Part shown: in pieces, positions 19,022 through 39,964 of the stretch
Layout: each line of letters starts with the position of its first letter
Position numbering within the stretch: position 1 is the first letter of the stretch
Origin: Escherichia coli
Lineage (GTDB): Bacteria; Pseudomonadota; Gammaproteobacteria; Enterobacterales; Enterobacteriaceae
NCBI RefSeq assembly: GCF_013122565.1
Contig: NZ_CP053258.1
Reading direction: 5' to 3' (one strand)
DNA length: 64,000 nucleotides
The notes under the pieces: generated by a model
What the model was told of the DNA's origin: nothing
Seen by the model: only the letters and a program-made list of their open reading frames with translations
The model's database searches: none
Made by a program: the position numbers and the translations under genes

Positions 19022-19372
19022 TCAGGTCCGCGTAATGGGGCAGGCGGTAAAGCGCATCATTTCACCCAGCGTACGGGTAACCTGGCTAAGTGCATATTCA
19101 ATTGCAGAAACATCACCAGTCAGCACTACGGCACCGGTAAAACGATCAAGAAAACCGATCTCTACAGCGCCTGATTTTGTGGCGATATCGCATGCGATGA
19201 TAGATGCTTCGCTGGGGGTAATCGTCAGAATGCCAATAGCAGAAACGGTGTCTGGTAAACCCAATTTCTTAAACAGATCCTTCCCTGGATTGGCGATGAC
19301 ATGTGCCAGCGTGACCTGCTTACCAGGGACATATTCCTGAATCATCCGTTCAGTTGTGTGCTGAGTTGTCAT
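19022..19372 (-). CDS. pduU: microcompartment shell protein PduU (permuted BMC domain)
   Basis: Translation ...[34 protein letters not shown]... matches PduU/EutS type; start taken at the internal Met to give about 116 aa. Confidence 0.88.
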
Positions 19373-19926: not shown

Positions 19927-19928
19927 GG

Positions 19929-22381: not shown

Positions 22382-22391
22382 TTCCGTTTCT

Positions 22392-23777
22392 CTAGCGAAT
22401 TGAAAAGCCGCTGGTTAACACGCAGCGTCGTGAGCGGGCAAAAGTCCGTGCTGACGTTGTCCCTTCTCCGGTCGGTGTTGCAATGGTAAAGGTCGTAAAG
22501 CCTTCGCCGCCGACGCCAATACCCGCCCAGGAGGGGCCGTTTTTGACAAAGATTGAGGTTTGCATAACGCGCGCAGCAAGGTTGAGCCGTGAGACGTTCT
22601 GCGAGTGCATAATTGCCGTGTGGTGCAAGCCGTCTTCCACTTTCAACGCCAGAGTGAGAGCGCTGTCAAAATCGTTGACCTTCACAATGGGCAGCATTGG
22701 CATCAGTTGTTCACAAGTAACCCAACTATCATCGGCGTCAACAACAGCAATCAGTAGGCGCGGCGCTTTTGCGGGCAAAGGGAGGCCCGCTGCTCCCAGC
22801 AAGGCTGATGGGCTTTTCCCAACCAGTTTTTTGTTGGTGCTACCGTCTGGCAGGCAAATTGCACGCAATTTCTCCGTTTGTTCACGGTTAAGAAGAAGTG
22901 CGCCAAAGCTTTGCATCTGCTGAATTAAATAATCTGCCACTGATGCCACGACAATCAGGCTTTTTTCAGCGATACACGGCAGGTTGTAATCAAAAGAAGC
23001 GCCGTTGATGATGTCCTCGGCGGCTTTCACAATATCAGCCGTTTCATCGACGATACACGGAGGGTTACCCGCTCCGGCACCAATCACTTTCTTGCCACTT
23101 TTCATTCCCATGGTGACGATCCCCGGACCGCCGGTAATCGCCAGAACGCTGATTTTAGGGTGCGCCATCATCTGTTCGGTGGCAGCAAAGGTCGGTTCAG
23201 ATACGGTAACGATCAGGTTATGAATGCCACTACAGCGAAACGCGATGTCTTCGATTGTGGTAATCAGTTTTAACGAAACGTATTTGGCTCCCGGGTGTGG
23301 ACTGAAGTAGACGCTATTACCTGCTGCCAGCATGCTGATGCTGTTGTTAATGATGGTTTCCGTGGGGTTGGTGCTTGGCGTGACCGAGCCAATAACCCCA
23401 AACGGAGAGTACTCAAACAAAACCATGCCACCATCACCGGTTAGTGCTGTGGTGGTTAAATCTTCAATTCCTGGCGTGTTATCAAGTGCCGCTTTGTTTT
23501 TTAGGTACTTATCTTCTTTATTTCCCATCCCCGTTTCTTTGGCGCTTTCTTCTGCCAGTTCGGTAAGGCGGGGCATTAATTCTTCGCGAATGGCGCTGAT
23601 AATGGCGCTACGGGTTTTAAGCGGGCACTGTTGAAAGCGTAAAAAGGCCTGGTGTGCTGCGCAGACCGCTTCATCGACAGTCTGGAAAATAGCGTTTCTT
23701 TGCGTTCGTGGTGTAGCGGGGACAAGTTGCTCACGCAGAATAATGCGGATCAGTGTTTCTAATTCAGAGTTATTCAT
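22392..23777 (-). CDS. pduP: CoA-acylating propionaldehyde dehydrogenase
   Basis: 461 aa aldehyde dehydrogenase family with N-terminal encapsulation-like helix (MNNSELETLIRIILREQL). Confidence 0.93.
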   Translation of the reverse strand: MNNSELETLIRIILREQLVPATPRTQRNAIFQTVDEAVCAAHQAFLRFQQCPLKTRSAIISAIREELMPRLTELAEESAKETGMGNKEDKYLKNKAALDNTPGIEDLTTTALTGDGGMVLFEYSPFGVIGSVTPSTNPTETIINNSISMLAAGNSVYFSPHPGAKYVSLKLITTIEDIAFRCSGIHNLIVTVSEPTFAATEQMMAHPKISVLAITGGPGIVTMGMKSGKKVIGAGAGNPPCIVDETADIVKAAEDIINGASFDYNLPCIAEKSLIVVASVADYLIQQMQSFGALLLNREQTEKLRAICLPDGSTNKKLVGKSPSALLGAAGLPLPAKAPRLLIAVVDADDSWVTCEQLMPMLPIVKVNDFDSALTLALKVEDGLHHTAIMHSQNVSRLNLAARVMQTSIFVKNGPSWAGIGVGGEGFTTFTIATPTGEGTTSARTFARSRRCVLTSGFSIR

Positions 23778-24781
23778 TGGTTTACTCCCACGTTAATTGC
23801 CGCCATTGCGCTTTGGGCAATATCCATGTCTTGTTCAACGCTACCGCCGCTGATGCCAAGCCCGCCAAGCAATTTTCCGTCACGCCAGAGGGGGAAGCCG
23901 CCACCAAAAGTGACGACTTTTCCTTGCATATGGCTTTCGAGCCCGTAAAGCGGCGCGCCGGGTTGCACGGTATCAGCAAGCTTGTGGGTTGCCGTTTTCA
24001 TCGCCACGGCGGTCCAGGCTTTTTTCGGTGCCAGTTCACTGCTGACCAACAGGGCATCAGGCATCCGCCAGGTAACACTTTCTGTTCCGTTGGCATCAAC
24101 AATGCTGATGACAACGGGAATATGCAGTTCATCTGCGCGCATTGCCGCACTACGAATGAGTTGGTGAAGATCCTGAAAAGTGAGCGGCATTGTGCGTTCC
24201 TTCATTGCTGGTGTGTGGTTGGCTTCGTGATAACGTTTTGTGATTTCCTGAATTATCAGATTTTGATGAGCAACGTTGTCTTCCACGCGGGCGAGGGCAT
24301 ACAGGCAATCGGAAAGTCGGTTGATATAGTGCAGCAAAACATTCCGGACGGTGGTTTCCGTTGTCAGTTCAACCAGCCGTCTTTCAGCCCGTCGAGCCAC
24401 CGTGCGGGCGAAATGCATGCGGCTTGCGGCTTCACATCGACCAGGCAGAATGAAGCTGTGAACTGGGGGGACGGCGTTCATTGCACTATCGATCGCGTTT
24501 TCCAGCACGGCAATTTCTTCCGTACCGACGTAACGCTGCTGCGCTGACGGCTGTTCGCTTTCACTGGCGAGTTCGGCGCTAAACCAAAATATCTGTTGTT
24601 GAATGGCTTCCAGTAAGATGCGATGGCTTTCAATGGAGGTGGCGCAATAACACAGACTAAGTGTCGCGTTCAGTTCATCCAGCGTGCCATAGGTTTCGAC
24701 ACGTAGATGAGTTTTGCTTACGCGCTGTCCGGTAAATAAAGACGTACTTCCTGAATCACCTGTTCGGGTATAAATTGCCAT
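23774..24781 (-). CDS. pduO: ATP:cob(I)alamin adenosyltransferase PduO (plus C-terminal DUF336 domain)
   Basis: 335 aa; N-terminal MAIYTRTGDSGSTSLFTGQRVSK is the PduO-type adenosyltransferase signature. Confidence 0.93.
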   Translation of the reverse strand: MAIYTRTGDSGSTSLFTGQRVSKTHLRVETYGTLDELNATLSLCYCATSIESHRILLEAIQQQIFWFSAELASESEQPSAQQRYVGTEEIAVLENAIDSAMNAVPPVHSFILPGRCEAASRMHFARTVARRAERRLVELTTETTVRNVLLHYINRLSDCLYALARVEDNVAHQNLIIQEITKRYHEANHTPAMKERTMPLTFQDLHQLIRSAAMRADELHIPVVISIVDANGTESVTWRMPDALLVSSELAPKKAWTAVAMKTATHKLADTVQPGAPLYGLESHMQGKVVTFGGGFPLWRDGKLLGGLGISGGSVEQDMDIAQSAMAAINVGVNQ

Positions 24782-24792
24782 CTTTCAGCTCC

Positions 24793-25068
24793 TTAGCGCG
24801 AAAGCGTATCGACAATGCCGACCACTGCCAGGTCGATGGCCTCGTTAGGGCCGGAAAACACATGTCTGGCGCTGGAACCACTGCTGAGGAGTACCAACTC
24901 ACCAACGCCTGCGCCGACTGAATCAACGGCAACTTCGTCGCCGGTTAAAGGCGTGAGAGGCAGTTCGCCGTCAGCACTGACCCGGCGAACCAGCAGTAGT
25001 TTTTTCCCGATCAGAGAAGGTGATTTTTGCGTGGATACTACCGCGCCAGTGACTCGAGCCAGATGCAT
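24793..25068 (-). CDS. pduN: microcompartment vertex (pentamer) protein PduN
   Basis: 91 aa EutN/CcmL family ([15 protein letters not shown]...). Confidence 0.9.
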
Positions 25069-25071
25069 AGG

Positions 25072-25563
25072 TTACTCCTGCCTGATTAACTGAATATTTC
25101 GGGTAATTGCCGCTTCACGAGCCAGTGCGGTCACACAACATTTCCGCTGTAACACCAGTATTCCAGAGCTTAACTGCGCAATATCGGCATAACTTAAAAG
25201 TCGATCACGATGAAGGTAGATCGGTTGCCCTTGCTCGTCGCACCAGCTTAGCGGTAGACGGGCGAGAGTCTTCAATTCAATGGCGTTCAGGAAATGATGC
25301 TGCAACGACAATTGAATGTGCATTCCCCAGGCTAACGCTTCGTGTATCTGGATTGCTGCTCGATCTGACGTTTCGTTCTCCGCAAGTTGTCGCAGCAGCG
25401 GCAGATCGACATATCGGATTTGTAATGACGCATACTGATGAACGCTCTCTTGAACGCTGGCGTCTCGCAGTTGAAAAACAGTCAGCACGAGTGTTTTTCC
25501 CGCACGTTGTTTAAGGCGAAAAACCACTTCGTCAACAATACGTTGCATCAGCATGTTATTCAT
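25072..25563 (-). CDS. pduM: microcompartment structural protein PduM
   Basis: 163 aa; position between pduL and pduN; PduM-like. Confidence 0.85.
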   Translation of the reverse strand: MNNMLMQRIVDEVVFRLKQRAGKTLVLTVFQLRDASVQESVHQYASLQIRYVDLPLLRQLAENETSDRAAIQIHEALAWGMHIQLSLQHHFLNAIELKTLARLPLSWCDEQGQPIYLHRDRLLSYADIAQLSSGILVLQRKCCVTALAREAAITRNIQLIRQE

Positions 25564-26192
25564 GGCACTGACACCAGTGTGGCAAAAACGTCAGGGCTAT
25601 CAGCGCCTGCGGCGTTGGCCTCATCGGTATCAATATGCATTTCAAGACGCATATCCGGAGAGACGCGAACAGCGACGTTTTCGAATATCAGTCGTCGCTC
25701 ATCACCTTCAATGGAAACCGCCACTTTATCGCCATGCGTAACGCCATAAATCAGGGCATCCAGCGGAGACATATGAATATGCCGTTGCGCGACAATAACG
25801 CCAGATGTGATCTCCAGTTCCGCAAATGGGCTTATCAAACGAATCCCCGGAGTGCCGCTGAGATCGCCTGACATGCGTAGCGGGGCGGTGATCCCTAACG
25901 TTCTGGCGTCCGTACGGGAAATTTCCACCTGGCTTGCATTGCGTAGCGGCCCCAACAAGCGAACGTTGTGCAATTTACCTTTTGGTCCCTCCAACGTAAC
26001 AACCTGTTCAGCCGCGAATTGGCCAGGCTGCATTAACGGCTTTTTCTCGCTAATCGGTTGTTCAGGAAAAAGACGCAAATAATCCGCTGTTGAAAGATGA
26101 ATATGACGACTGGAAACACCCAGAGGGATAGGGCGCTCGCGCATCTCATCCAGAATCTGACTCACTGTTTCCTGCAAGGTTTGTTTATCCAC
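25560..26192 (-). CDS. pduL: phosphate propanoyltransferase PduL
   Basis: 210 aa PduL/EutD-type phosphotransacylase. Confidence 0.9.
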   Translation of the reverse strand: MDKQTLQETVSQILDEMRERPIPLGVSSRHIHLSTADYLRLFPEQPISEKKPLMQPGQFAAEQVVTLEGPKGKLHNVRLLGPLRNASQVEISRTDARTLGITAPLRMSGDLSGTPGIRLISPFAELEITSGVIVAQRHIHMSPLDALIYGVTHGDKVAVSIEGDERRLIFENVAVRVSPDMRLEMHIDTDEANAAGADSPDVFATLVSVP

Positions 26193-26194
26193 TG

Positions 26195-26617
26195 CTACTC
26201 CCCTCGCTTATTGGCGTGCAGGCAAAGTGAGCGGGGCTCGCCTTTTTGCCGCTGACATGCCGGGTCAAGACACAAATTACAACTGATAATCTCTGAGGTG
26301 ACGGTTGTTGCTGGTGTTTCGCTTGTTTCAACCGTCACAGTCAATGCTTCAGTTGTGTGGGGCAGGATGCCCTCTCCCGGGCGGGCAATCACTTTGTGTG
26401 CGACAAGGCCATTTCGCTGTCCGGCGAAACTGGCTCCCGTCGCGATCGCCGCATTAACCGAGGCGACGTCACCGTTGATTTTGATGAGCGTCCAGCCTGA
26501 GCCATTGGTCTTCTCAAGGCCAACCAGCGTGATGGACGCGGCTTTTGCCATAGCGTCTGCGCAACTGATGGCGAGTGCCAGACCACTGACTTCAAGTAAT
26601 CCCAGTGATTGCTTCAC
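26195..26617 (-). CDS. pduK: microcompartment shell protein PduK (BMC domain plus Cys-rich C-terminal tail)
   Basis: N-terminal BMC domain (LGLLEVSGLALAISCADAMAKAA) and C-terminal tail with C-x2-C-x4-C...C. Confidence 0.88.
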   Translation of the reverse strand: MKQSLGLLEVSGLALAISCADAMAKAASITLVGLEKTNGSGWTLIKINGDVASVNAAIATGASFAGQRNGLVAHKVIARPGEGILPHTTEALTVTVETSETPATTVTSEIISCNLCLDPACQRQKGEPRSLCLHANKRGE

Positions 26618-26640
26618 GCTGTGCTCCTTAGCAAATGGGG

Positions 26641-26916
26641 TTATGCCGATTTAGGTAAAATAGCCTCAACATCACTGTGTGGACGCGGGATGACATGGCA
26701 GGATTTCACTTCGCCAACGGCGCTTGCCGCAGCGCTACCCGCATCAACGGCGGCCTTTACTGCGCCAACATCACCGCGGACCATAACCGTAATCAGACCC
26801 GAACCAATCTTTTCATAGCCAACCAGCTGCACGTTGGCGGATTTAACCATGGCATCTGCAGCTTCAATTGCGCCAACTAACCCTTTTGTTTCAACCAGTC
26901 CTAGTGCGTTGTTCAT
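26641..26916 (-). CDS. pduJ: microcompartment shell protein PduJ (BMC hexamer)
   Basis: 91 aa, close paralogue of PduA ([29 protein letters not shown]...). Confidence 0.93.
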
Positions 26917-26935
26917 ACAGCGTTTCTCCTGTGGA

Positions 26936-27286
26936 TTATGAGTGGCATTCCCTGAAGGGAATGCCTTTTACCAGGCGGGCAGCGTTATTGCCGATGCTGC
27001 GCCGGGCATGGTTATCTTGTTGATACATCAGCGTAAACAGTGGCGCTGATGCCGGTAAGTTTTTGTAATGCACAATCAGCTTTTCCCGGTCGCAGGCTAT
27101 GCCAACCAACAGGGGGGACTGACGAGCAGCCTGCCAGGCGCTATCGATGACTTCACCTGACGGGATATGTTGAATGCGAAAGGGGATGCCTTCCTCTTCA
27201 ATGCCAAGAAGCACCTCATTCCATGTACTGATACAGTCACCTATTTCCGTAACGACAATAGCGGGCGTATGTTCTTTACTTTCCAT
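26936..27286 (-). CDS. pduH: diol dehydratase reactivase small subunit
   Basis: 116 aa; follows pduG; overlapping start/stop. Confidence 0.9.
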
Positions 27287-29108
27287 GAGCCAACTCCCTG
27301 TGCCAGGAAATCAGTAGCCCGGTAGCTACCGCATTGCGCGGGCCTTCACTACCACGGATATTCCCCCGTCCGGCGACCAATCGATAATGCGCCAATGCAT
27401 CGGTGACTAACTGCGGGACTTCGAAATCCAGGGAAGAACCGCCCACCAGAACGACGAACGGAATATCGCGAATATTTCCGCCTGGACTTACCTGACGTAG
27501 CGCGCGCAGGGCATTGGTTACGAAGACGCGCTCTTTCGCACTGCGGCGAACAGCGCGTACTTTTTCCAGTGTTAAATCGCCGGGAATAGGCACCAGTTCG
27601 TCAGGTTTCACCACACAAACGCGGGCAAATACATGAGGGGACAGCGGAGTAGGGAAGAACTGAACGCTGCCGTCTTCATGGCGTAAATGGAACAGGCTTT
27701 CTACTTTTGCCAACGGGTATTTTTTGATTTCTTCTGCCAGATAACGATCATTTAAGCCCAGTTCCCTGGCAATAATCATCGTCACCATGTCGCCCGCTCC
27801 CGCAAGGTGAGTAGCTATCATTTCCCCTTTCTGATTGATGATGGAGGCATCGGTAGAGCCTGCACCTAAGTCCAGAATAGCCAGTGGACGTGTGGTTCCA
27901 GGGGTAGTCAAGGCCCCCTGAATGGCGGCTTCTGCTTCTGCGCCTCCGACCTGAACATCAACATGCAGTTTTTGCTTAATTTCACTGGCGATCATCGCCA
28001 TTTGCAGACGGTCGGATTTCACCATAGAGGCAATACCCACAGCCTGTTCCAGTGAAAATTCACCTGCCAGACCACCGGTTACGCTGACGGGGACAGAGGT
28101 ATCTATCGCCAGCAAATCCTGAATAAAAATTTCGTGGCTGGGTTTATTGGTCAGCTCCGCCATGGTCTGGCGAACATGTTCCAGCATACCGCCGATGTTG
28201 GTGCCTGGTTCTCCCGTCACGTTTTCCAGTTTTGGGCACTCACCGACCGCTTTCATAATGGCATCGGCACCAGCAGCTACATCAACGCGCGTTGTGCGCC
28301 CGGCAGAAAGCAGTTCGATATTTCCGGCGGGTATCGAACGGGCTTTAACGTCGCCAGAAGGCGTTTTCACTACCACTGCTGAACGGTTGCCGATTAGCGC
28401 CCGCGCGACAGGAACAATATTTTTAGTCTCTTCAGCATTGAGGGCGAAAACGGTGGCAATCCCATACGGGTTAGACAGGGTTTCGATAACTTTCCCGGGA
28501 ACGGCAACTTCAATTGCAGCCAGCATGCCGAGCGGAATACGATCGATGTAGAGGACTTCATCGACAATAGGTAGAGGAATTTCCAGACGGTTATTGACCA
28601 GTACGCCATCGTCGCGTTGCAGAATAACGCCAGTTAGCTGATATCCGGCGCGTACGGAGGCGTTCATCATCGTCGCGATATCGGCAAAATCAAATGCCGA
28701 TGACACCACCAGGATGTAAGGTGTGTCCGCCGGGCGTGTTAATAACTCTTGCGGAGTGATGGTGAGCCCTACGCCCAGCCCCACTCCGCCCGGAGTTTTC
28801 GGGTTGTGACCGATCATGGTTGATTCGGTGATGATAGTTTCAGTGATGGTTTCCATCGCCACATCACCAATGACCGGAGTTGCTTCGTTGATACGAATAA
28901 GCGAAATATCGCTAACATTGATGCCGACTTTTTTCGTTGCCTGTGCGAGCGCCTTCTGAATACCATGGACGTTACGCAACGTACCTTTGATTCCGGTGGT
29001 TTCCGCCAGGGCGCTACTCACGAACGATAACTCTCCAGATGCACTGAGCGTTGCCAGCGCTACCTCTGTCGATGAGTTGCCGATATCAATGCCTGCTATA
29101 TATCGCAT
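27276..29108 (-). CDS. pduG: diol dehydratase reactivase large subunit
   Basis: 610 aa, ATPase of the DhaF/PduG family (MRYIAGIDIGNSSTEVALA). Confidence 0.93.
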   Translation of the reverse strand: MRYIAGIDIGNSSTEVALATLSASGELSFVSSALAETTGIKGTLRNVHGIQKALAQATKKVGINVSDISLIRINEATPVIGDVAMETITETIITESTMIGHNPKTPGGVGLGVGLTITPQELLTRPADTPYILVVSSAFDFADIATMMNASVRAGYQLTGVILQRDDGVLVNNRLEIPLPIVDEVLYIDRIPLGMLAAIEVAVPGKVIETLSNPYGIATVFALNAEETKNIVPVARALIGNRSAVVVKTPSGDVKARSIPAGNIELLSAGRTTRVDVAAGADAIMKAVGECPKLENVTGEPGTNIGGMLEHVRQTMAELTNKPSHEIFIQDLLAIDTSVPVSVTGGLAGEFSLEQAVGIASMVKSDRLQMAMIASEIKQKLHVDVQVGGAEAEAAIQGALTTPGTTRPLAILDLGAGSTDASIINQKGEMIATHLAGAGDMVTMIIARELGLNDRYLAEEIKKYPLAKVESLFHLRHEDGSVQFFPTPLSPHVFARVCVVKPDELVPIPGDLTLEKVRAVRRSAKERVFVTNALRALRQVSPGGNIRDIPFVVLVGGSSLDFEVPQLVTDALAHYRLVAGRGNIRGSEGPRNAVATGLLISWHRELAHGK

Positions 29109-29117
29109 AGTTCGTCC

Positions 29118-29636
29118 TTAATCGTCGCCTTTCAGTTTTTTGCGCTCGACATAAAGTTCCGCAGCTTCACGGACAAATGCAGCACAAATTTGGGCCTGAT
29201 AACGCCGTTCAAGATCGTCAGCAATGGCAATAAGTTCTTGCTTAGTTGAACGATAAGGGCGTAACGCATTGTAGATTTCGAGGATGCGATCATCCGGTAC
29301 TGAGGTAAGCTCAGCGGCGCGTTCAAAATTCATCGCCAGACGATCGCGACCAGCATCTCTGGCAATCGCGGCCTGAATACGCAATGTTTCAGGGGTAATG
29401 CGCATATCCTGGGCGGTGACGTTATCGCTTAGCACATTTTCCAGAGTGAAATCGTCGAGCGTTTTATTGGTTGCTGTTTTAACCCATTCCGGATGTTTAT
29501 TTGCCAGCGGATAATCCGTCACTTTGGCGCTCTGTATTGACGCGCTGGGGACCGCAGAAACAGGAGCTGCATCCTGTAAACTGTTCATGCGGTTCAACAC
29601 GTCCCTGACCATCGACTCAATTGCATCGGTATTCAT
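29118..29636 (-). CDS. pduE: propanediol dehydratase small (gamma) subunit
   Basis: 172 aa; order C-D-E conserved. Confidence 0.93.
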   Translation of the reverse strand: MNTDAIESMVRDVLNRMNSLQDAAPVSAVPSASIQSAKVTDYPLANKHPEWVKTATNKTLDDFTLENVLSDNVTAQDMRITPETLRIQAAIARDAGRDRLAMNFERAAELTSVPDDRILEIYNALRPYRSTKQELIAIADDLERRYQAQICAAFVREAAELYVERKKLKGDD

Positions 29637-29650
29637 GAAGGTTTCCTTTG

Positions 29651-30319
29651 TTAAAACGTCACGCGCAGTTCTTGCGGTTTTTTGCCAGTGACCACGTACT
29701 TCGTCTCTTTAATATGCAAAATGGCAGATTTGGCTTGGTATTTCGGCCGCGCCATTTGATCGTTGAGGGTCGGCACTGGTTGTGGAGACTCACGCTTCGC
29801 ATAACGCGCGGCGTTTTTGCCAATCTGACGATAAGTATCCAGCGTCAACAAAGGCGCTTGTGGGAAAAGTTCCAGGTTAGACAAGGGAGGAAGCCCCTGC
29901 TGGTGGATAACCGTTGTGCCTTTCGACTGAATACCGATAGCAATACCTGAACCACTAAGACGATCGCCTTCGACTGCTACGAATGCGACATCGGACGATT
30001 TAAAGCAGCGAATCACACGGGCTTTAATACCTTCTTCTTCGATACCGGCAATTACTTCGCGCAAGATGTTTTTATGCGGAATACCGATGATATTGACGGT
30101 TTGCGCCAGGCCGAACGCCGGTCCTACAGCAATAATGACTTCATCTTGCTGAGTGCCTTGTTGGGCTTCGCCAATTTCGGTCAGAAAATTTCCGGTATCT
30201 GGCGCGAAAGAGGCAGTTGCAGAGACAGGTGCGCGAAATGAAACGGACTTGTCGCTGGTTTGCATTTCTGCCAGCACGTCTTCGATAATCTGACGCAGTA
30301 ATTTTTCGTTAATTTCCAT
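29651..30319 (-). CDS. pduD: propanediol dehydratase medium (beta) subunit
   Basis: 222 aa; N-terminal encapsulation helix ([19 protein letters not shown]). Confidence 0.93.
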
Positions 30320-30328
30320 TTCTCACCC

Positions 30329-31993
30329 TTAGTCAATTTCGTTGGGATCAAGTGCACCGGGAATATTTTTGATCTCTTCCCAGCGTTCCCCTTGCAGGCG
30401 GTAACCTGTAGCCGGTCCGGCGTAATCATTGACGTCATTGACCGCAGAGAGCACTTGTCCGTCATCGACGATGATGGCTGAGGTATGGAGATAATCGCCG
30501 GTCAGTTTTGCTTTTTGCATGTTGAGCATGTCCTGGGCGACATCGGTAAAACCGCCTTGCGCCAGGGCTTTCACCACTTCCAGGCTGTTACGGTTTTTAT
30601 TGATAATTTCCTGGGCGAACTTAATGTCTTCTACGATGTTGCGCTCTGGCATATCTTTCGAACCGTGGGCATAGGTCGCCGCTTCGACTTCTTCATCGGT
30701 AATAGGCGGTAGCCCCATACCGGCAAAGACAGCCTGTAAAGCGCGAGCGGCTTTATTGCGGATAGCGATAACATCTTCTTCGCGTACTGGTCGCAGCCCG
30801 CCATCAACCTTCAGGTCACGCTGAATGACGTTGTAATCATCGAAGTCTTCAGCATCTTCGTTTGAACCAGCAAACATGTTGTCGTAGTTCGGCACAGCGG
30901 AAAAACCGGAAGAGATAAAGTCGGTACCAGGCAGAAACTGCATCAGGAAACGTGCGGTACGGCGCATATCCGAGTGGGTAAAGGTCTGGTCATTACTGGA
31001 GGCGCATTCCAGATCCAGCGATGAGCAAATTAAGTTTTCCGCTAATACTGCGCGGATGCCTGATGGCACAGCTGATGGAACACCGATGCAGCTTACCGAA
31101 CCATTCTGCAGGCCCTGAACGCCTGCGGCTTTGGTGATGTAAATGCAACGAGCCTCGAGATAAAGCATTGATTTGCCTTCCGCGTAACCCATCTGTACTT
31201 CAGAGCCGGAGCCGGAAGTAAAGCGCATTTTTAAGCCGCGAGACGCATAGGATGACGCGAGAAATCCTTTTGACCACGGGGTGTCATCGCCATCGGTGAA
31301 AACAGGTTCTGTACCATAGACAGAAATTGTTTCGGCGTAACAGGTGTGGCCTAACATACCGAGTTTCAGTTCGGTGGCTTCTTCCAGTGAACACTGGGTC
31401 AAGACGCCCGGACGTCCCACCTGTGAGCCGACCAGCAGGGCGATGGCGTTGAACGGGGCATAGCGAGCAACGGCAACGGTGGTTTCCTGTTCATCAAACC
31501 CGCGCCATGCGCCTTCAGCTGCGTCGGCGGCAATTTGTACCGGGTTATCTTTGACGTTGGTGACGTGAGCCTGTTGTGATGGTGTTCGACGGGCGCGCAT
31601 TTTCTGCATCGCCATCATCATCTCTACCACGTTCATCTGCGAAACAACTTCGACGATTTTTGCAGGCGTCATTGCTGTGGTAAGGGGAACGATATCGCTA
31701 CGTTTGACATTTGGATCGCACAACATATTGGCAAGTTTTACCGAATCCATCGCGATGACTTCTTCTGCGCGCGCGAGATTGATGCCGTAGCGGGCGATAA
31801 AGTGGTCGATCAGGTCAAACTGGCTGGCGGGTTTTCCATCCAGTTCGGTAACGACGCTGTTAACAATTTTGATTGACGGTTTAGGATCGTTCGGGCTTTC
31901 CATCGCAATGAAGCCTTCTTCAATCCACTCTTTAACGAAACCGTCCTGGTTGACCGGGCGTTTTGCCAGTGCTTCAAATCTTTTCGATCTCAT
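30329..31993 (-). CDS. pduC: B12-dependent propanediol dehydratase large (alpha) subunit
   Basis: 554 aa; diol/glycerol dehydratase large subunit family. Confidence 0.95.
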   Translation of the reverse strand: MRSKRFEALAKRPVNQDGFVKEWIEEGFIAMESPNDPKPSIKIVNSVVTELDGKPASQFDLIDHFIARYGINLARAEEVIAMDSVKLANMLCDPNVKRSDIVPLTTAMTPAKIVEVVSQMNVVEMMMAMQKMRARRTPSQQAHVTNVKDNPVQIAADAAEGAWRGFDEQETTVAVARYAPFNAIALLVGSQVGRPGVLTQCSLEEATELKLGMLGHTCYAETISVYGTEPVFTDGDDTPWSKGFLASSYASRGLKMRFTSGSGSEVQMGYAEGKSMLYLEARCIYITKAAGVQGLQNGSVSCIGVPSAVPSGIRAVLAENLICSSLDLECASSNDQTFTHSDMRRTARFLMQFLPGTDFISSGFSAVPNYDNMFAGSNEDAEDFDDYNVIQRDLKVDGGLRPVREEDVIAIRNKAARALQAVFAGMGLPPITDEEVEAATYAHGSKDMPERNIVEDIKFAQEIINKNRNSLEVVKALAQGGFTDVAQDMLNMQKAKLTGDYLHTSAIIVDDGQVLSAVNDVNDYAGPATGYRLQGERWEEIKNIPGALDPNEID

Positions 31994-32011
31994 AAATCTG
32001 CCTCAGAGAAT

Positions 32012-32824
32012 TCAGATGTAGGAAGGGCGATCGTTTTTCGGTGTATCGCCAAGAGTCGAAAGCACGGTTTTACCGATTTCGCGTGCGGAGATGACCGCCT
32101 GGCGGACTGCGCCGGAGTCACCCGAGATAATCAGAATGACTTCATTGCTGTAGCTGGTGCCTTGAGCGGGGGAGCTGTATGCCACAACATCCACATTGGC
32201 GGACTTCAGCGCGGTGTCGGCCATCAGAACACCCACAGCAGCCGGAGCGCCGACAATAACGCCGCAAGCCCGTCCCAATGGTGCACCAAACGCTTTTTCC
32301 AGTGCATAGCTGGCGCGGGCGGTATATTGCAGCTCAAGATGTCCGGCTTCGTTGGCATAGACATCGCCAAAGGTCCGATCGAGTTCTTTCAGGGCGACTT
32401 CAATACCGCGTTTCACGTCGGAAACATCGTTGCCACCTAAGAGGATCAATGAGCCATGCCCGGCACCGCCTTTAGTATCGCGAGGAAGTTCAATGCTAAT
32501 AACTTCAGTGTTGGTGGCTTTTACCGCTTCATCAGCGGCCATAATGTGTGGCCCTGCGCCAATACGCGCACCCAGAATGCCAATGGAACGATAGCGTTTT
32601 TCAAGTTTCATCGCGTCCAACAGGGCGCTATCAACGTTCGCAATGACCAGACCTACAGTGTCGCCAATAGCGGTGCCAACAAATTCTGTTAACGTGCAGC
32701 TTTTTTCTGCCATAGCCGTCTCTCGTATTTGATGAGTGGTTTTCGGGAGAACCTCATGCTCTGGCGTCGCTACGCGAGCGATGACCTGCGCCATGATCTG
32801 TTCGACCAGTTCATTGCTGCTCAT
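32012..32824 (-). CDS. pduB: microcompartment shell protein PduB (tandem BMC)
   Basis: 270 aa; tandem BMC domains. Confidence 0.93.
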
Positions 32825-33105
32825 GGGTTAATTCCCTTTGGTAAGATTTTTTCGACATCGGTATGTGGTCGGGGAATAACGTGTACGGCTTTTACTTCGC
32901 CGACGTTACGCGCAGCTGCGGCACCTGCGTCTGTTGCCGCTTTTACCGCCCCGACATCACCACGAACGATGACGGTCACCAGCCCGGAACCTATTTTTTC
33001 GTAGCCGACCAGCAAAACATTTGCTGACTTCACCATGGCGTCTGCGGCCTCTATGGCGGCAGTTAAGCCTTTGGTTTCTACCATTCCTAACGCTTCTTGT
33101 TGCAT
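32821..33105 (-). CDS. pduA: microcompartment shell protein PduA (BMC hexamer)
   Basis: 94 aa [30 protein letters not shown]...; first gene of the operon. Confidence 0.95.
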
Positions 33106-33617
33106 AAAGACCTCGTCTGGATTTTTTTGACGATATGACTATAAAAAAAAGCGAGGAAAAAGAATGGCTGACTTAATCGGCTAATGAGAAAAATTAATAG
33201 AGGGCAAATATTATAAAATTGCTTTTATGAACTATATGTTGTTAATTTATTAGTTGTTTTGTGGATATTTCAATGTGAATTAATTGCGTTGGCTGAGGAG
33301 GTTAATCGCGGATAAAATTTCGTTGGGTTTGGTTCGCGGAAGGGAATTGTGATATTTGTTTAAATTTTATTATATCATGATGACAATTTTTTATTGTAAA
33401 AGCTTGGCGGTAATTATTACTTTCAACACTGATTAACGCTGTGTTGCATGATTCTGCAATGACAATAATTTGTTATCTTAGCACGATTTTTACACGAGTC
33501 TGTCATGCATGTTGGCAATATTTTCTGCAGAGCAATTTTTTATAGTTGCGCTCGGTATACACAACAATCAGCGCATAGTTGGCTGATAAAGAAAAACTCC
33601 GTAAAGAAGGTGTCACT
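33106..33617. promoter_or_regulatory. AT-rich divergent control region between pduA and pduF (pdu and pduF-pocR promoters, presumed PocR sites)
   Basis: 512 bp non-coding, strongly AT-rich, separating the divergently transcribed pduA and pduF; individual promoter elements not resolved. Confidence 0.6.
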
Positions 33618-34427
33618 ATGAATGATTCACTCAAGGCGCAATGCGTTGCCGAGTTTTTGGGCACTGGACTGTTCCTCTTTTTTGGCATTGGTTGTTTGTG
33701 CGCCCTGAAAGTTGCCGGGGCAAGTCTGGGACTGTGGGAAATTTGTATCATTTGGGGGTTAGGGATTTCGCTTGCTGTTTACCTTACGGCAGGTATTTCC
33801 GGCGCTCATCTTAACCCGGCTGTTACCATTGCTCTGTGGCTGTTTGCCTCTTTCCCAGCCCGTAAAGTGCTGCCATTTTGTGTGGCGCAATTAGCGGGTG
33901 CCTTTGGTGGTGCGGTTCTGGCATATTCTCTATACAGCAATTTGTTTATCGATTTTGAATCTGCTCACAATATGGTGCGTGGTAGTGCAGAAAGTTTACA
34001 ACTCGCCAGTATCTTCAGTACTTATCCGGCAGCGGCGATTAATGTATGGCAAGCTGCGTTGGTCGAAGTGGTCATAACGTCCATGTTAATGGGGTTGATT
34101 ATGGCGTTGACCGATGACGGTAATGGCGTACCCAAAGGACCGCTTGCGCCTTTACTTATTGGTATTCTGGTTGCTGTTATTGGTGCTTCTACCGGACCAT
34201 TAACCGGTTTTGCCATGAATCCAGCGCGTGATTTTGGACCTAAGATTTTCACCTGGCTTGCGGGGTGGGGGGAAATTGCGATGACTGGTGGACGCAATAT
34301 TCCTTATTTCATTGTACCCATTATTGCACCGATCATTGGGGCATGTGTTGGTGCGGCGATTTATCGCTATCTCATTGCAAAGAATTTACCTGTCAATAGT
34401 GTAACGCCTAAAGAAATTAGCGAATAA
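33618..34427 (+). CDS. pduF: propanediol diffusion facilitator (aquaporin/GlpF family)
   Basis: Translation MNDSLKAQCVAEFLGTGLFLFFG... with two NPA motifs (HLNPAVT and NPARD). Confidence 0.93.
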   Translation: MNDSLKAQCVAEFLGTGLFLFFGIGCLCALKVAGASLGLWEICIIWGLGISLAVYLTAGISGAHLNPAVTIALWLFASFPARKVLPFCVAQLAGAFGGAVLAYSLYSNLFIDFESAHNMVRGSAESLQLASIFSTYPAAAINVWQAALVEVVITSMLMGLIMALTDDGNGVPKGPLAPLLIGILVAVIGASTGPLTGFAMNPARDFGPKIFTWLAGWGEIAMTGGRNIPYFIVPIIAPIIGACVGAAIYRYLIAKNLPVNSVTPKEISE

Positions 34428-34629: not shown

Positions 34630-35544
34630 ATGATTTCTGCGGCGACACTTAATTCAGAACTCATTAATAAAATCGCGCAGGATTTTGCGCAGGCGACCAG
34701 CCTTGCGGTTGTCGTGGTCAATATTCACGGCGATGAAATTTCCGAGCTGTTTAACTTCACTCCATTTTGTCAGATGATGCGGCAACACCCTCAGCTAAGC
34801 ACTCGATGTCGCATGAGTGATCGTTGTGGGGGCCTGGAAGCCTCTAAGTCCGATCAGCCTTGTATTTATCGCTGTCATGCCGGATTAACCGATTTCTCTA
34901 TTCCTCTGGTAATCGCCGGACATTTAGTTGGTTTTGTATTGTGCGGGCAAGTTCGTCTGCGTAATGATGATGTCGATTTGGTTGATATTCTGAATGTCGA
35001 TGATTGCTGGCAGGCAGATCCCGAATTACTTAATGAATTCCGCAAAGTCCCTGAGATGGATTACTCAAGAGTTATGGCCTCTGCTGATTTGTTGAAGTTG
35101 ATTGTGGAAAATTGCCTCAAAAAACAACTCAATTTTGTGGTTATTAAAGAAAACAAATCTCAGTCAGATTCGGTGCGCCAGACTCGTGCGCCTAATCCCC
35201 ACGACAATAAAATGAAAAAAGCTTTACGCTATATTGATGCACATTTATCAGACGATTTGCGTCTGGAGGATGTCGCCTCACATGTTTACCTAAGCCCTTA
35301 TTATTTCAGTAAGTTATTTAAGAAATACCATGGAATCGGGTTTAATGCGTGGGTAAACCAACAACGGATGGCCAGCGCTCGTGAGTTACTGTGCCATAGC
35401 GACTGGAGCATCGCCAGCATTGCGCGTAATTTAGGTTTTTCCCAAACCAGTTATTTTTGCAAAGTTTTCCGTCAGACTTATCAGGTTACGCCGCAGGTGT
35501 ATCGGCAGCAAGTGAATGAAAATGCGGCGATGGAAATGGTATAG
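34630..35544 (+). CDS. pocR: AraC-family regulator of pdu/cob (PocR)
   Basis: 304 aa; N-terminal PocR sensory domain and C-terminal AraC-type HTH. Confidence 0.93.
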   Translation: MISAATLNSELINKIAQDFAQATSLAVVVVNIHGDEISELFNFTPFCQMMRQHPQLSTRCRMSDRCGGLEASKSDQPCIYRCHAGLTDFSIPLVIAGHLVGFVLCGQVRLRNDDVDLVDILNVDDCWQADPELLNEFRKVPEMDYSRVMASADLLKLIVENCLKKQLNFVVIKENKSQSDSVRQTRAPNPHDNKMKKALRYIDAHLSDDLRLEDVASHVYLSPYYFSKLFKKYHGIGFNAWVNQQRMASARELLCHSDWSIASIARNLGFSQTSYFCKVFRQTYQVTPQVYRQQVNENAAMEMV

Positions 35545-35654
35545 AGTAAATGCCCCAAAAAAAGAGGACGGTTTAAATAAACTCTGGAATGAATAATTAA
35601 CGTTATTTACCTGTTATGGGAAAAGTAAAATCAGCTCATAACATACGCTGACAG

Positions 35655-35905
35655 GTGTGGCACATTTGTGCCTGGGAAGAGGGTGAAAATCCCTCGCAGC
35701 CCCCGCTGCTGTAATGCTGACAAACCCGAAAATGCCACTGATCGCGAGATTGGGAAGGTCGGGAGAGGATGACGCTAAGCCAGAAGACCAGTCTGTCAGT
35801 CAATACCAACAACTTCGGTGGGAAGTGGGTTGCCCGGAAGCGTTCGGTAGAGTACAGGCGCGTCTTTATACCCCTACCACCCTGAAAGGATCAGGGTATG
35901 GCGGC
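35655..35905 (+). promoter_or_regulatory. cobalamin (AdoCbl) riboswitch
   Basis: Conserved elements read directly: GGGAAGAGGGTGAAAATCCCTCGCAGCCCCCGCTGCTGTAA, GCCACTG...GGGAAGGTCGGG, and B12 box AAGCCAGAAGACCAGTC. Confidence 0.75.
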
Positions 35906-36028
35906 ATCATTTAGTTCTTTCATCGCAGTGCCGACAGGCACCAGGGATGCATTCAAGGTGTGGCAATATTGTTTCATGGCTTATCAACCAGAGCGCCATT
36001 ACAGGAAATTAAGTGGAGGGCGAGAGGC

Positions 36029-36466
36029 ATGAAAACGATAAAACCCGAATCGATAGCTCTTTTTTGCCTCTTATCTGGAGATGTGGATCTGGCGAAACAT
36101 CTGGCGGAAATATTGCCAATAACCTGTTTTGTTGGTGAGGACTGGCAGCAAGATTTCCAGCCTCTTAACGGTGGGCCTGTGCAATCGTTATCAGATGCGT
36201 ATAGCGATTATTCAGTGCTGCTATTGATAGCAGCTGAAAGCGAGATATCCGTACCAGAATGGCTCGCTCATTCTGAGGGAACGACGGTAATTTTGATTGC
36301 AGAACACAATGCCCGTTTACTGACTGGTCCGGCTGGTGGGGCTGTAGCATTAATCCATTATCTGAATGAAATCTGTCATTCCAGAGAAACCGCTGTCAAT
36401 GACGCATTTTGTCATACGTTAACACGAGGAAGTCGGGCTATTCCACAATGCCATCTTCTTTCGTAA
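36029..36466 (+). CDS. hypothetical protein downstream of the B12 riboswitch (ORF may extend to GTG 35960)
   Basis: ORF 35960..36466; internal ATG at 36029 is preceded by a GGAGGG Shine-Dalgarno; no family recognised by eye; sits where the cbi genes would be. Confidence 0.4.
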   Translation: MKTIKPESIALFCLLSGDVDLAKHLAEILPITCFVGEDWQQDFQPLNGGPVQSLSDAYSDYSVLLLIAAESEISVPEWLAHSEGTTVILIAEHNARLLTGPAGGAVALIHYLNEICHSRETAVNDAFCHTLTRGSRAIPQCHLLS

Positions 36467-36599
36467 TGGATTGAGAATGCTGGATTTTTAATTATATTAC
36501 GCGCAGTATTAATCGTGTAAATGTTTTGCGGTCAGCAACGGTGGGGGATCCATTGTTCTGTTCAATGAATACCATCATACAATTGAATCAGGAGTCGGT

Positions 36600-37145
36600 A
36601 TGATGATTTTGGTGACGGGGGGCGCACGGAGCGGGAAGAGTCGCCACGCAGAGGCGCTTATTGGGAACTCTTCACAGGTTCTGTATATCGCCACCTCGCA
36701 AATCCTTGATGATGAGATGGCTGCACGGATAGAACATCATCGGCAAGGCCGTCCGGCGCATTGGCGCACGGTGGAGCGTTGGCAACATCTTGATGAATTA
36801 ATTCATGTAGACATTAACCCGCATGAAGCTGTGTTGCTGGAATGCGTTACCACAATGGTGACTAATCTGTTGTTTGATTATGGCGGCGATAAAGACCCTG
36901 ATGAATGGGATTATCAGGCGATGGAACAGGCGATTAATGCTGAGATTCAGTCGTTGATTGCCGCCTGCCAACGTTGCCCCGCAAAGGTTGTATTAGTGAC
37001 TAACGAAGTGGGAATGGGGATTGTGCCGGAGAGTCGTCTGGCACGACATTTTCGTGATATTGCCGGGCGGGTAAATCAGCAGCTGGCCGCTGCGGCAAAT
37101 GAAGTATGGCTGGTGGTTTCGGGTATTGGAGTAAAAATCAAATGA
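36600..37145 (+). CDS. cobU: adenosylcobinamide kinase / adenosylcobinamide-phosphate guanylyltransferase
   Basis: 181 aa with P-loop GGARSGKS; matches CobU. Confidence 0.95.
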
Positions 37146-37885
37146 GTAAATTATTTTGGGCGATGCTCTCATTTATTACGCGTCTGCCTGTACCGCGTCG
37201 CTGGTCCCAGGGACTGGATTTCGAGCATTATTCTCGCGGTATTATTACTTTTCCTTTAATTGGATTATTGCTTGGCGCGATTAGCGGGCTGGTCTTCACG
37301 GTGCTGCAGGCATGGTGTGGCGTACCACTGGCGGCACTGTTTAGCGTGCTTGTGCTGGCGCTGATGACCGGGGGATTCCACCTGGACGGCCTCGCCGATA
37401 CCTGTGATGGCGTATTTTCTGCACGTAGCCGCGATCGCATGTTGGAAATCATGCGTGATAGCCGTTTAGGCACCCACGGCGGTCTGGCATTGATTTTTGT
37501 TGTACTGGCAAAGATTCTGGTGTTAAGCGAGTTGGCTCTGCGTGGCGAACCGATCCTTGCATCGCTGGCGGCAGCATGTGCGGTCAGCCGCGGGACTGCC
37601 GCATTATTGATGTATCGTCATCGTTATGCCCGGGAAGAAGGGCTTGGCAATGTGTTCATTGGCAAAATTGATGGGCGACAAACCTGCGTCACACTCGGCT
37701 TAGCCGCTATTTTTGCTGCCGTATTATTGCCGGGTATGCATGGTGTGGCTGCTATGGTGGTGACGGTGGTGGCGATTTTCATCCTCGGTCAGCTTCTCAA
37801 ACGTACGCTGGGCGGGCAAACCGGCGATACGCTGGGAGCTGCTATAGAGCTTGGTGAACTGGTCTTCCTGCTGGCACTGCTATAA
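37142..37885 (+). CDS. cobS: cobalamin 5'-phosphate synthase
   Basis: Translation [21 protein letters not shown]..., polytopic membrane protein; start overlaps the cobU stop (ATGA). Confidence 0.93.
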
Positions 37886-37896: not shown

Positions 37897-38976
37897 ATGC
37901 AAACACTTGCCGATTTACTGAATACGATCCCTGCTATCGATCCTGCCGCTATGTCGCGTGCACAACGGCATATTGACGGGTTACTCAAACCTGTTGGTAG
38001 CCTTGGAAGGCTGGAGGCGCTTGCCATACAACTGGCAGGAATGCCGGGGTTGAATGGCATACCGTATGTGGGCAAAAAAGCGGTACTGGTTATGTGTGCC
38101 GATCACGGCGTCTGGGAGGAAGGGGTCGCTATTTCCCCAAAAGAAGTGACAGCCATTCAGGCTGAAAATATGACCCGCGGAACAACCGGCGTGTGTGTGC
38201 TGGCAGCACAAGCGGGCGCTAACGTCCACGTAATTGATGTTGGTATTGATACTGTTGAACCTATCCCCGGGCTTATCAACATGCGTGTCGCACGAGGTAG
38301 CGGCAATATTGCTTCAGCTCCGGCAATGAGTCGCCGTCAGGCTGAAAAGTTGCTTTTGGACGTCATATGTTATACGCGGGAGCTGGCAAAAAACGGTGTC
38401 ACGCTGTTTGGTGTAGGTGAACTGGGGATGGCAAACACGACACCGGCAGCGGCAATAGTCAGCACAATCACTGGCCGGGATCCTGAAGAAGTGGTTGGGA
38501 TTGGCGCAAACCTGCCGACAGATAAACTGGCTAATAAAATTGATGTTGTGCGCCGGGCGATTACGTTGAATCAACCAAATCCGCAGGATGGCGTTGATGT
38601 TCTGGCAAAAGTGGGGGGATTTGATTTGGTCGGAATGGCTGGCGTGATGTTAGGCGCTGCTTCCTGCGGTTTACCCGTGTTGCTGGATGGATTTCTTTCT
38701 TATGCTGCTGCGCTCGCAGCCTGCCAGATGTCTCCTGCAATCAAACCGTATCTCATTCCTTCTCACCTGTCGGCAGAAAAAGGGGCGCGTATAGCGCTGT
38801 CGCATTTGGGGCTGGAGCCTTATCTCAATATGGATATGCGTTTAGGTGAGGGGAGTGGCGCAGCTCTGGCGATGCCCATCATCGAAGCTGCTTGTGCGAT
38901 ATACAACAACATGGGCGAACTTGCTGCCAGTAATATTGTTCTACCGGGGAAAACGTCTTCTGATTTGAACAGTTAA
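37897..38976 (+). CDS. cobT: nicotinate-nucleotide--dimethylbenzimidazole phosphoribosyltransferase
   Basis: 359 aa; matches CobT. Confidence 0.95.
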
Positions 38977-39037: not shown

Positions 39038-39964
39038 ATGATGCGTCGTGTAAATATTCTTTGCTCATTTGCTCTGCTTTTTGCCAGCCATACTAGCCTG
39101 GCGGTAACCTATCCATTACCTCCAGAGGGTAGCCGTTTAGTGGGGCAGTCGCTTACTGTAACTGTTCCTGATCACAATACCCAGCCGCTGGAGACTTTTG
39201 CCGCACAATACGGGCAAGGGTTAAGTAACATGCTTGAAGCGAACCCGGGCGCTGATGTTTTTTTGCCGAAGTCTGGCTCGCAACTCACCATTCCGCAGCA
39301 ACTGATTTTGCCCGCCACTGTTCGTAAAGGGATTGTGGTTAACGTCGCTGAGATGCGTCTTTATTACTACCCGCCAGACAGTAATACTGTGGAAGTCTTT
39401 CCTATTGGTATCGGCCAGGCTGGGCGAGAAACCCCGCGTAACTGGGTGACTACCGTTGAACGTAAACAAGAAGCACCAACCTGGACGCCAACGCCGAACA
39501 CTCGGCGCGAATATGCGAAACGAGGGGAGAGTTTGCCCGCATTTGTTCCTGCGGGGCCCGATAATCCCATGGGGCTGTACGCGATTTATATTGGCAGGTT
39601 GTATGCCATCCATGGTACCAATGCCAATTTTGGTATTGGACTTCGGGTAAGTCAGGGCTGTATTCGTCTGCGCAATGACGATATCAAGTATCTGTTTGAT
39701 AATGTTCCTGTAGGTACTCGTGTGCAAATTATCGACCAGCCAGTAAAATACACCACTGAACCAGATGGCTCGAACTGGCTGGAAGTTCATGAGCCGCTGT
39801 CGCGCAATCGTGCAGAATATGAGTCTGACCGAAAAGTGCCATTGCCTGTAACCCCATCTTTGCGGGCGTTTATCAACGGGCAAGAAGTTGATGTGAATCG
39901 CGCAAATGCTGCGTTGCAACGACGATCGGGAATGCCTGTGAATATCAACCGTAACGGATTTTGA
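39038..39964 (+). CDS. ldtA: L,D-transpeptidase (YkuD domain), LdtA/ErfK
   Basis: Signal peptide plus YkuD catalytic motif [24 protein letters not shown]. Confidence 0.93.

Follow-up and report, generated by a model that had tools for sequence, protein, structure and literature searches.

A cob-operon cobalamin riboswitch and a cbiG fragment stranded behind pocR in Escherichia

The 64,000-nucleotide stretch of Escherichia coli DNA analysed here (the window; contig NZ_CP053258.1 of assembly GCF_013122565.1) contains an operon for B12-dependent propanediol utilization (pdu). Next to it, a cobalamin riboswitch lies between pocR, whose product is the AraC-type activator of the pdu/cob regulon, and the cobU, cobS and cobT genes (cobUST) of nucleotide-loop assembly and corrinoid salvage (Table 1). 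The interval between pocR and cobU measures exactly 1055 bp, where complete operons have about 14.3 kb; the aptamer core is 0.90 kb from cobU here and 14.1-14.7 kb from it in 40 complete-operon loci. An initial annotation of the sequence had pointed out the gap of ~1.05 kb, with cobUST as all that remained, and a salvage-only state beside a B12-dependent pathway. Both are borne out: the cbi genes are gone, the pdu operon is intact, NCBIfam profiles confirm cobUST, and the picture agrees with what is known of E. coli, in which nucleotide-loop assembly by the endogenous CobU, CobS, CobT and CobC is established (PMC6249242). The presence of pdu in some E. coli strains is also known (PMC9220930, PMC4509574), and the salvage-only configuration as such (no cbi, cobUST present, pdu in some strains) is nothing unusual and has been annotated before. 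Our concern here is the riboswitch left in this interval and the gene fragments behind it, which selection has preserved across the genus.

A scan with cmscan matched the Rfam cobalamin family RF00174 on the plus strand at 107.7 bits (gathering score 31.5; E 5e-26), and the match spans the whole model, positions 1-189 of 189. The aptamer begins 91 nucleotides (nt) past the pocR stop codon, on the same strand, and its B12 box, AAGCCAGAAGACC, pairs as in the RF00174 model. Near its end, at 35880..35896, the expression platform has the hairpin CCCTGA-AAGGA-TCAGGG, which sequesters the Shine-Dalgarno sequence immediately before the old cbiA ATG at 35898. Every pair of this ribosome-binding site (RBS) hairpin, together with the start codon, is kept in all five Escherichia sequences compared; the pairs are also kept in four of five outgroup sequences, the remaining one having two pairs affected. 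Among ten sequences compared, 10 of the 70 pairs predicted by RNAalifold show compensatory changes (for example A-U/U-A at columns 38/157 and A-U/G-C at columns 45/60), and on the E. fergusonii branch one U-A to C-G double change preserves a helix. Aptamer orthologues in other Escherichia loci have covariance scores of 109-113 bits, as high as those of genera with intact operons (102-108 bits). The platform region folded alone was uninformative (z-score 0.14). Taken together, these matches identify the element as a full-length cobalamin riboswitch of the cob-operon leader. The well-formed adenosylcobalamin (AdoCbl) riboswitch noticed in the initial annotation is thus upheld by the Rfam scan; the span assigned to it, 35655..35905, overlaps most of the aptamer and platform, the aptamer proper being 35636..35810.

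When the complete operons of Citrobacter, Salmonella, Klebsiella and other genera were aligned with the window, positions 35632..35906 matched the Salmonella/Citrobacter cob leader at 82-85% identity, the similarity ending 9 nt into cbiA at ATGGCGGCA. The RBS hairpin and ATGGCGGC are identical in four sequences, those of the window, S. arizonae, C. youngae and C. sedlakii. The alignment, which agrees with the earlier remark that the element occupies the place of the Salmonella cob/cbi leader, marks it as the orthologue of the AdoCbl riboswitch of the Salmonella/Citrobacter cob operon, stranded by deletions. One of these deletions fell upstream of the aptamer. The end of pocR and the aptamer core are 153-158 nt apart in Escherichia, versus 287-628 nt in other genera; Salmonella and Citrobacter have ~290-320 nt between pocR and the aptamer. 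Their pre-aptamer DNA contains a strongly conserved block with a promoter-like TTGTCA-N16/17-(AAAAAT/TAGTAT), and 35 complete-operon loci share a conserved 30-mer that includes the -35 element of this Pcob-like promoter. That 30-mer was found neither in the window nor in any Escherichia locus of this layout. The position of the block agrees with the start of the Salmonella cob transcript, which we take to lie ~468 nt before cbiA. As judged from the alignment, then, the Pcob promoter and upstream control region that a Salmonella-type leader has of its own are gone from this locus. It follows that a PocR-dependent promoter, which the initial annotation had allowed for together with the riboswitch ahead of the ORF and cobUST, does not sit there, and that any propanediol response would need read-through out of pocR.

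No replacement is apparent. On the plus strand of the pocR-aptamer spacer a scan found neither promoter-like nor terminator-like sites, and inspection by eye revealed only weak, unconserved -10-like hexamers. A promoter inside the spacer was considered and set aside, no sigma-70-like site being present there in E. coli, E. albertii or E. fergusonii. Further down, TTGAGA-16-TATATT, ~100 bp ahead of cobU, is a promoter-like site as a consensus match only (10 of 12 positions).

Behind the platform lie the remains of the cbi genes. ORF1 opens at the old cbiA start codon; its beginning, MAASFSSFIAVPTGT, resembles CbiA MAANFHAFVLAGTGS, and its end, ERHYRKL, resembles the C-terminus of CbiF, EYHYSKL, in the same frame. 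The alignments make it an in-frame cbiA'::'cbiF fusion. Its TGA overlaps the ATG of ORF2 at 36029 (ATGA). A stop/start overlap of these two frames is found in every lineage: it is ATGA in five, and in E. fergusonii, where ORF1 runs on to the native stop of cbiF, 20 nt inside ORF2, it is the native 20-nt cbiF/cbiG overlap. ORF1 has, in other words, the geometry of a riboswitch-gated leader ORF, with its start at the controlled RBS and its stop overlapping the next start, and translation of ORF2 may depend on it.

ORF2 had been described as a short unknown ORF. It is better described as a relic of the N-terminal domain of CbiG (cobalt-precorrin-5A hydrolase), and the annotation of the LF82 genome already names it CbiG (PMC4509574). 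Its residues 1-~118 align with the N-terminal domain of enterobacterial CbiG at 40-46% identity; it scores 69.1 bits against NF004463 (cutoff 546), over profile positions 1-125 of 351 only, and a profile search also matched PDB entry 3EEQ (E 7e-5). The CbiG motif LLSGHxGGAN is degraded to LLTGPAGGAV, and the domain has two small deletions, of 4 and 3 amino acids. A Pfam scan of ORF2 found no domains. The AlphaFold2 model is mediocre (predicted local distance difference test, pLDDT, 64), and a Foldseek search with it against the PDB gave no match below E 0.009. Word-indexed and exhaustive HMMER searches of 1.8 billion proteins returned 30 homologues. ORF2 as a family extending beyond Escherichia was therefore rejected, the matches being Escherichia relics and a few enterobacterial CbiG proteins, mostly truncated or frameshifted. 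By these comparisons ORF2 is not a CbiG enzyme: it lacks the middle and C-terminal domains of CbiG, its copy of the motif has degenerated, and the pathway in which it could act is missing; we know of no function for an isolated CbiG N-domain.

Recognisable cbiP homology begins near 36420, inside ORF2, and the frameshifted 3' end of cbiP occupies at least the final 150 nt ahead of cobU. The cbiG/cbiP junction lies somewhere from about 36375 to 36440; because the sequences can be aligned in two registers, an in-frame CbiG::CbiP fusion is not claimed. The locus thus retains stubs of cbiA, cbiF, cbiG and cbiP. That the cbi block is gone had been recognised, but a single clean cbiA-cbiP deletion, or a cbiA'::'cbiP fusion ORF, was rejected on finding that ORF2 matches the start of cbiG and not cbiA or cbiP. 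The sequence comparison calls for at least three deletions. One took away the Pcob promoter block along with the beginning of the leader; another joined cbiA, at codon ~16, in frame to the closing ~13 codons of cbiF; a third took out everything from cbiG codon ~120 through cbiP, except the last ~150-180 nt of cbiP.

In a survey of 5426 complete E. coli genomes, the best matches to the window were 98.6-99.1% identical. The pocR-riboswitch-ORF-cobUST layout occurs in 643 of them, including E2348/69 and MP1, and RefSeq already annotates the riboswitch in genomes of this layout; it is common, machine-annotated and no peculiarity of this genome. Contiguous cbi genes would have spoken against the salvage-only state; cbiH-cbiL-like DNA was found in none of the 5426. 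A complete cbi operon was also looked for in E. coli as a reference, and none exists there, the sole divergent match being a second, cbi-less pdu island. The riboswitch is present in 645 genomes and pocR in 644; a stub upstream of cobUST is present in 5397. Within the species, then, the riboswitch co-occurs with pocR and not with cobUST. Most other E. coli have only the last ~130-470 bp before cobU left. In pdu-less strains the retained stub has at least five left ends (query positions 582, 751, 796, 872/873 and 928), some abutting IS5 and some a pduV remnant. The differing ends indicate that pdu, pocR and the riboswitch were lost several times independently.

The second E. coli pdu island (strain 48, NZ_CP166879.1; locus L004, 17000-24400) belongs to a pathogenicity island with espI, iha and btuB. 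In it, pocR is followed by a cob riboswitch, ~1.3 kb of decayed DNA, an independently truncated CbiG N-domain ORF of 144 amino acids, a second cobalamin riboswitch (45.5 bits) and btuB. It is a mobile pdu unit whose partner is a B12 importer and not a B12 synthesis pathway.

Six lineages share these deletions: E. coli, E. whittamii, the strain-E69 lineage, E. albertii, E. fergusonii and E. marmotae. The aptamer lies exactly 393 bp before the ORF2 start in these lineages; in E. marmotae only ORF2 was seen. Being common to all six, the three deletions are older than the split of these lineages, and the differences between the species all arose later. Two other loci carry labels that are probably wrong. 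A metagenome bin labelled Citrobacter sp. (L006) has an E. coli-type locus (PocR 98% and ORF2 95% identical) and is probably mislabelled or contaminated; Escherichia sp. MOD1-EC7003 (L032) has a complete-type cbiG, the promoter block and a PocR only 82% identical, and is probably not a strict Escherichia.

What follows ORF2 varies from species to species. E. coli, E. whittamii and E69 have cobU-cobS-cobT-ldtA. In E. albertii (L077, 10436-11701; L008, 950-2390) cobU is decayed, with several deletions and fragments at 64-67% amino acid identity, and cobT is absent; cobS is intact and strongly constrained, with a ratio of nonsynonymous to synonymous substitution rates (dN/dS) of 0.02-0.04. What use this species has for a constrained cobS on its own is not obvious. 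In E. fergusonii (L081, 9488-10700) cobUST are absent from the locus and ldtA comes directly after ORF2; 1-10 kb beyond stands a gene cluster for a glycyl-radical-enzyme microcompartment. Across the genus, as within E. coli, the riboswitch-ORF module tracks pdu/pocR and not cobUST.

The aptamer and platform differ from the window by 6-7% in E. whittamii, E69 and E. albertii and by 11% in E. fergusonii; for ORF1 the corresponding figures are 21-28% and 56%. The platform alone differs from that of the window by 7-10% in the other Escherichia species, and the synonymous divergence (dS) of pocR is 0.45-0.66 (E. whittamii and E69 only). Over all ten species pairs the aptamer and platform differ by 3-13% and ORF1 by 6-61%. 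In nine of the ten the contrast is strong (6-13% versus 21-61%; Fisher p 2e-4 to 1e-22); in the closest pair, E. whittamii/E69, it is not significant (3.1% versus 6.2%, p 0.17). This pattern is the mark of purifying selection on aptamer and platform. ORF1, of 44-49 codons, is open in all six lineages, its sequence being unconstrained to the point that E. fergusonii has no amino acid similarity to the others. Its open frame is by itself weak evidence, with a chance of ~0.25 per lineage (~0.13 for a random 43-codon frame). ORF2 is likewise open in all six. Between Escherichia species the two frames have a single in-frame 3-nt indel, in ORF2, and no frame shift; the 133-bp cbiP stub has indels of 1, 6 and 11 nt. 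With the observed substitutions placed at random, ORF2 stayed open in all four simulated lineages in 0.2% of trials. Its dN/dS, an approximate figure obtained by the Nei-Gojobori method on a short gene, is 0.32-0.67 overall and 0.22-0.39 over codons 1-68, where nonsynonymous differences per site are fewer than synonymous ones (pN < pS) in ten of ten species pairs (p 0.03 to 1e-5). These values identify the ORF2 N-terminus as a target of purifying selection, with both frames preserved. A riboswitch and a gene fragment kept in this way across a genus probably still do something.

The surroundings are those of an ordinary his-to-asn-tRNA neighbourhood. The divergent pdu operon follows the same gene order as the pduA-pduG annotated in E. 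coli 6EVA and stops at pduV, ~100 bp from a tmaR-like gene (18473-18574); pduW and pduX are absent. The pduX gene encodes a threonine kinase needed for de novo B12 synthesis only, and its absence therefore fits a salvage-only state. For pduF the mechanical ORF list gives an earlier start, at 33579 (33579..34427). Between pduF and pocR, at 34486-34569 on the minus strand, lies a small RNA of the STnc230 family (74.8 bits), whose position is conserved among Escherichia, Salmonella and Citrobacter loci. Beyond ldtA, ~9.5 kb of sugar-utilisation genes (40126-49407) precede tRNA-Asn: two galactitol-type phosphotransferase system sets, RpiB-like, Rpe-like and HxlB-like proteins, a short-chain dehydrogenase/reductase and two DeoR-type regulators. 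In E. coli 6EVA, unlike the window, the tRNA comes directly after ldtA. Three identically scoring tRNA genes at 49469-53770 match in position the tRNA-Asn genes annotated in that strain. On the other side are a histidine operon leader (9246-9369, minus strand, 131.6 bits) and the small RNA STnc240 (11668-11742, plus strand).

Table 1. Features of the pdu-pocR-cob region of the window and the basis for each assignment
Feature	Position	Strand	Basis
pdu operon, pduA to pduV (B12-dependent propanediol microcompartment), divergent	18574..33105	-	ORF lists, colinearity
pduF (propanediol facilitator)	33618..34427	+	transferred from RefSeq annotation of locus L001
pocR, AraC-type activator of pdu/cob regulon	34630..35544	+	NF047788, 554.7 bits (cutoff 500)
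Short pocR-aptamer spacer, without Pcob block and first leader part	35545..35635	+	alignment, absence of promoter 30-mer
AdoCbl (cobalamin) riboswitch aptamer	35636..35810	+	RF00174, full model
Expression platform, up to old cbiA ATG	35811..35897	+	RBS hairpin pairs kept
ORF1, 44-codon in-frame cbiA'::'cbiF relic	35898..36032	+	alignments to CbiA and CbiF
ORF2, 145 codons: CbiG N-terminal domain (~118 aa), then cbiP-3'-derived sequence	36029..36466	+	NF004463, CbiG alignment
Decayed, frameshifted 3' end of cbiP	36467..36599	+	alignment
Promoter-like site TTGAGA-16-TATATT before cobU	36471..36498	+	consensus scan, 10/12 matches
cobU	36600..37145	+	NCBIfam NF004469, above cutoff
cobS	37142..37885	+	NCBIfam TIGR00317, above cutoff
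cobT	37897..38976	+	NCBIfam NF000996, above cutoff
ldtA	39038..39964	not given	NCBIfam

How might such a locus work? We propose, giving the proposal about an even chance of being right, that it acts as an AdoCbl translational OFF switch which gates the relic ORFs and has at most an indirect hold on cobUST; that the aptamer responds to its ligand as a working switch is part of the proposal and shares its standing. The RNA would be made by read-through from the pduF/pocR promoters, the most likely source given that the operon's promoter block is gone and that nothing resembling a promoter or terminator lies between pocR and the aptamer. With AdoCbl bound, the conserved hairpin would hide the RBS of the old cbiA start codon. 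ORF1 would then remain untranslated and, if the two frames are coupled, so would the overlapping ORF2. The untranslated RNA might be prone to Rho termination or decay, and less read-through would reach cobUST where these genes are present. When AdoCbl is scarce, both ORFs would be translated and read-through would rise. Any control of cobUST would be exerted only through ribosome occupancy and polarity on the read-through RNA, atop the possible promoter ahead of cobU.

These properties invite comparison with the Salmonella/Citrobacter cob leader, which work by Richter-Dahlfors and Andersson in 1992 (cited in PMC11260477) reportedly defined, in Salmonella, as an AdoCbl-repressed translational control element. 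The two are alike in their position after pocR, their nucleotide sequence, the aptamer, the RBS hairpin and the cbiA start codon. They differ in that the Pcob block and early leader are deleted here, that the regulated ORF is a 44-codon relic instead of cbiA, and that ~14 kb of cbi genes have been cut to stubs, so that control of cbiA-cbiP is no longer possible; only cobUST lie downstream, and fewer or none of them in sister species. A relative in the same host species and the same Rfam family is the E. coli btuB riboswitch, a translational OFF switch with downstream effects on its mRNA that controls a B12 importer from its own promoter. The present element, in contrast, lacks a recognisable promoter and is not directly followed by an intact B12 gene. 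As for the arrangement of the ORFs, the closest parallel comes from Mycobacterium tuberculosis, in which the ppe2 B12 riboswitch gates a translated leader ORF needed by the next gene through termination-reinitiation (PMC11260477). There, too, a B12 translational OFF switch precedes a short ORF with overlapping stop and start codons (PMC11260477). The sequences are unrelated and the riboswitch is of a different class, and in M. tuberculosis the leader ORF and its target are experimentally established, whereas the coupling suggested here follows from geometry and frame conservation only. The ppe2 relay may nonetheless be taken as a working precedent for the one we propose.

Several observations weigh against the proposal as it stands. 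In LF82 cultures, ORF2 RNA (16.7 and 13.0 reads per kilobase per million mapped reads, RPKM) exceeds that of pocR (7.3 and 10.8), pduF being at 0.7 and 3.3 (PMC4509574). Simple read-through would predict the reverse for ORF2 and pocR, unless the RNAs differ in stability or a promoter has gone unrecognised. Moreover, ~88% of complete E. coli genomes are without the switch yet have cobUST, and strains missing everything upstream of ~36295, or of ~36472, still have these genes. Their retention in switch-less genomes, together with the promoter-like site close to cobU, means that cobUST need not depend on upstream transcription. Nor can cobUST be the whole reason for keeping the module, since E. 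fergusonii, which has no cobUST, and E. albertii, with a dead cobU and no cobT, have both kept it. The suggestion of the initial annotation that B12- and propanediol-responsive control of cobUST may persist could therefore hold at most in an indirect form, and such control is doubtful as the cause of retention. Retention without cobUST and the constraint on the ORF2 N-terminus raise the possibility that ORF2, or an effect on pocR, is what has been selected.

It is tempting to speculate that ORF2 itself is the selected output: a small protein repressed by B12 and belonging with the pdu/pocR system, where it might, for instance, handle imported or incomplete corrinoids, control of cobUST being incidental. 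The low dN/dS of codons 1-68 in ten pairs, all of whose divergence followed the shared deletions, speaks for this, as do the frame left open in six lineages, the module kept by E. fergusonii and E. albertii, and the transcription of ORF2 in LF82 (PMC4509574). The company that the switch keeps in E. coli, pocR and not cobUST, points the same way, and the second, cbi-less island has an independently truncated CbiG N-domain ORF after its own cob riboswitch. However, co-occurrence with pocR may reflect adjacency, as deletions that remove pdu take neighbouring DNA with them, and the protein is not convincing in every respect. Its motif is degraded and its domain twice shortened, its overall dN/dS is high for a working protein, it has neither a Pfam domain nor a confident model with a significant structural match, and an isolated CbiG N-domain has no function known to us. 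On balance we regard this explanation as possible, if rather on the unlikely side. We hold equally tentatively to its broader form, in which the cob riboswitch and the CbiG N-domain relic would be a genus-wide selected module, functionally part of pdu/pocR and not of B12 synthesis or salvage, with ORF2 a new small protein made only at low AdoCbl that arose from the fragment after the deletions.

Alternatively, the riboswitch could act on the pocR transcript or as a free RNA, by setting the 3' end or stability of the pduF-pocR mRNA, by insulating what lies beyond from pocR read-through, or in trans in the manner of EutX and Rli55. In Listeria and Enterococcus, B12 riboswitches govern pocR or eut regulators via non-coding RNAs. 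The aptamer's place just past the pocR stop, on the same strand and with no intervening promoter- or terminator-like site, suits such a role, and so do its invariable inheritance with pocR and its persistence where nothing B12-related lies downstream. But the open ORF1 and ORF2 frames and the constraint on the ORF2 N-terminus would go unexplained, and the idea has no partner site or binding protein to point to. Moreover, if the OFF switch acted by making pocR mRNA unstable in the presence of B12, pdu expression would fall at the very time when the cofactor can be had. We consider this explanation improbable. Far less credible still is the notion that the riboswitch and ORFs are neutral leftovers in the course of decay. 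Most E. coli have indeed lost the region while retaining cobUST, and the parts around it (the ORF1 sequence, the ORF2 tail and the cbiP stub) are clearly decaying. Against this background, however, in most pairs the aptamer and platform evolve 3-5 times more slowly than the relic DNA beside them, structure-preserving double substitutions have accumulated, one of them on the E. fergusonii branch, with covariance scores undiminished, and ORF2 is open with dN below dS. A translational OFF switch gating the relic ORFs remains the reading we prefer.

In the literature searched we found no paper describing this riboswitch in pdu-positive Escherichia, nor any account of a genus-wide orphaned biosynthetic riboswitch, its promoter loss or a selected CbiG-fragment ORF. 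The matter bears on the physiology of these bacteria. Strains of E. coli that carry pdu, adherent-invasive and enteropathogenic ones among them, depend on B12 from other gut microbes, and the way they sense this cofactor is relevant to when propanediol can be used. The locus also amounts to a natural experiment, in which a riboswitch lost every one of its original target genes and yet, by all indications, stayed under selection through the history of the genus in the company of a fragment of one of the deleted genes. It makes the re-targeting of riboswitches, and the turning of gene fragments into new proteins, testable in a tractable organism.

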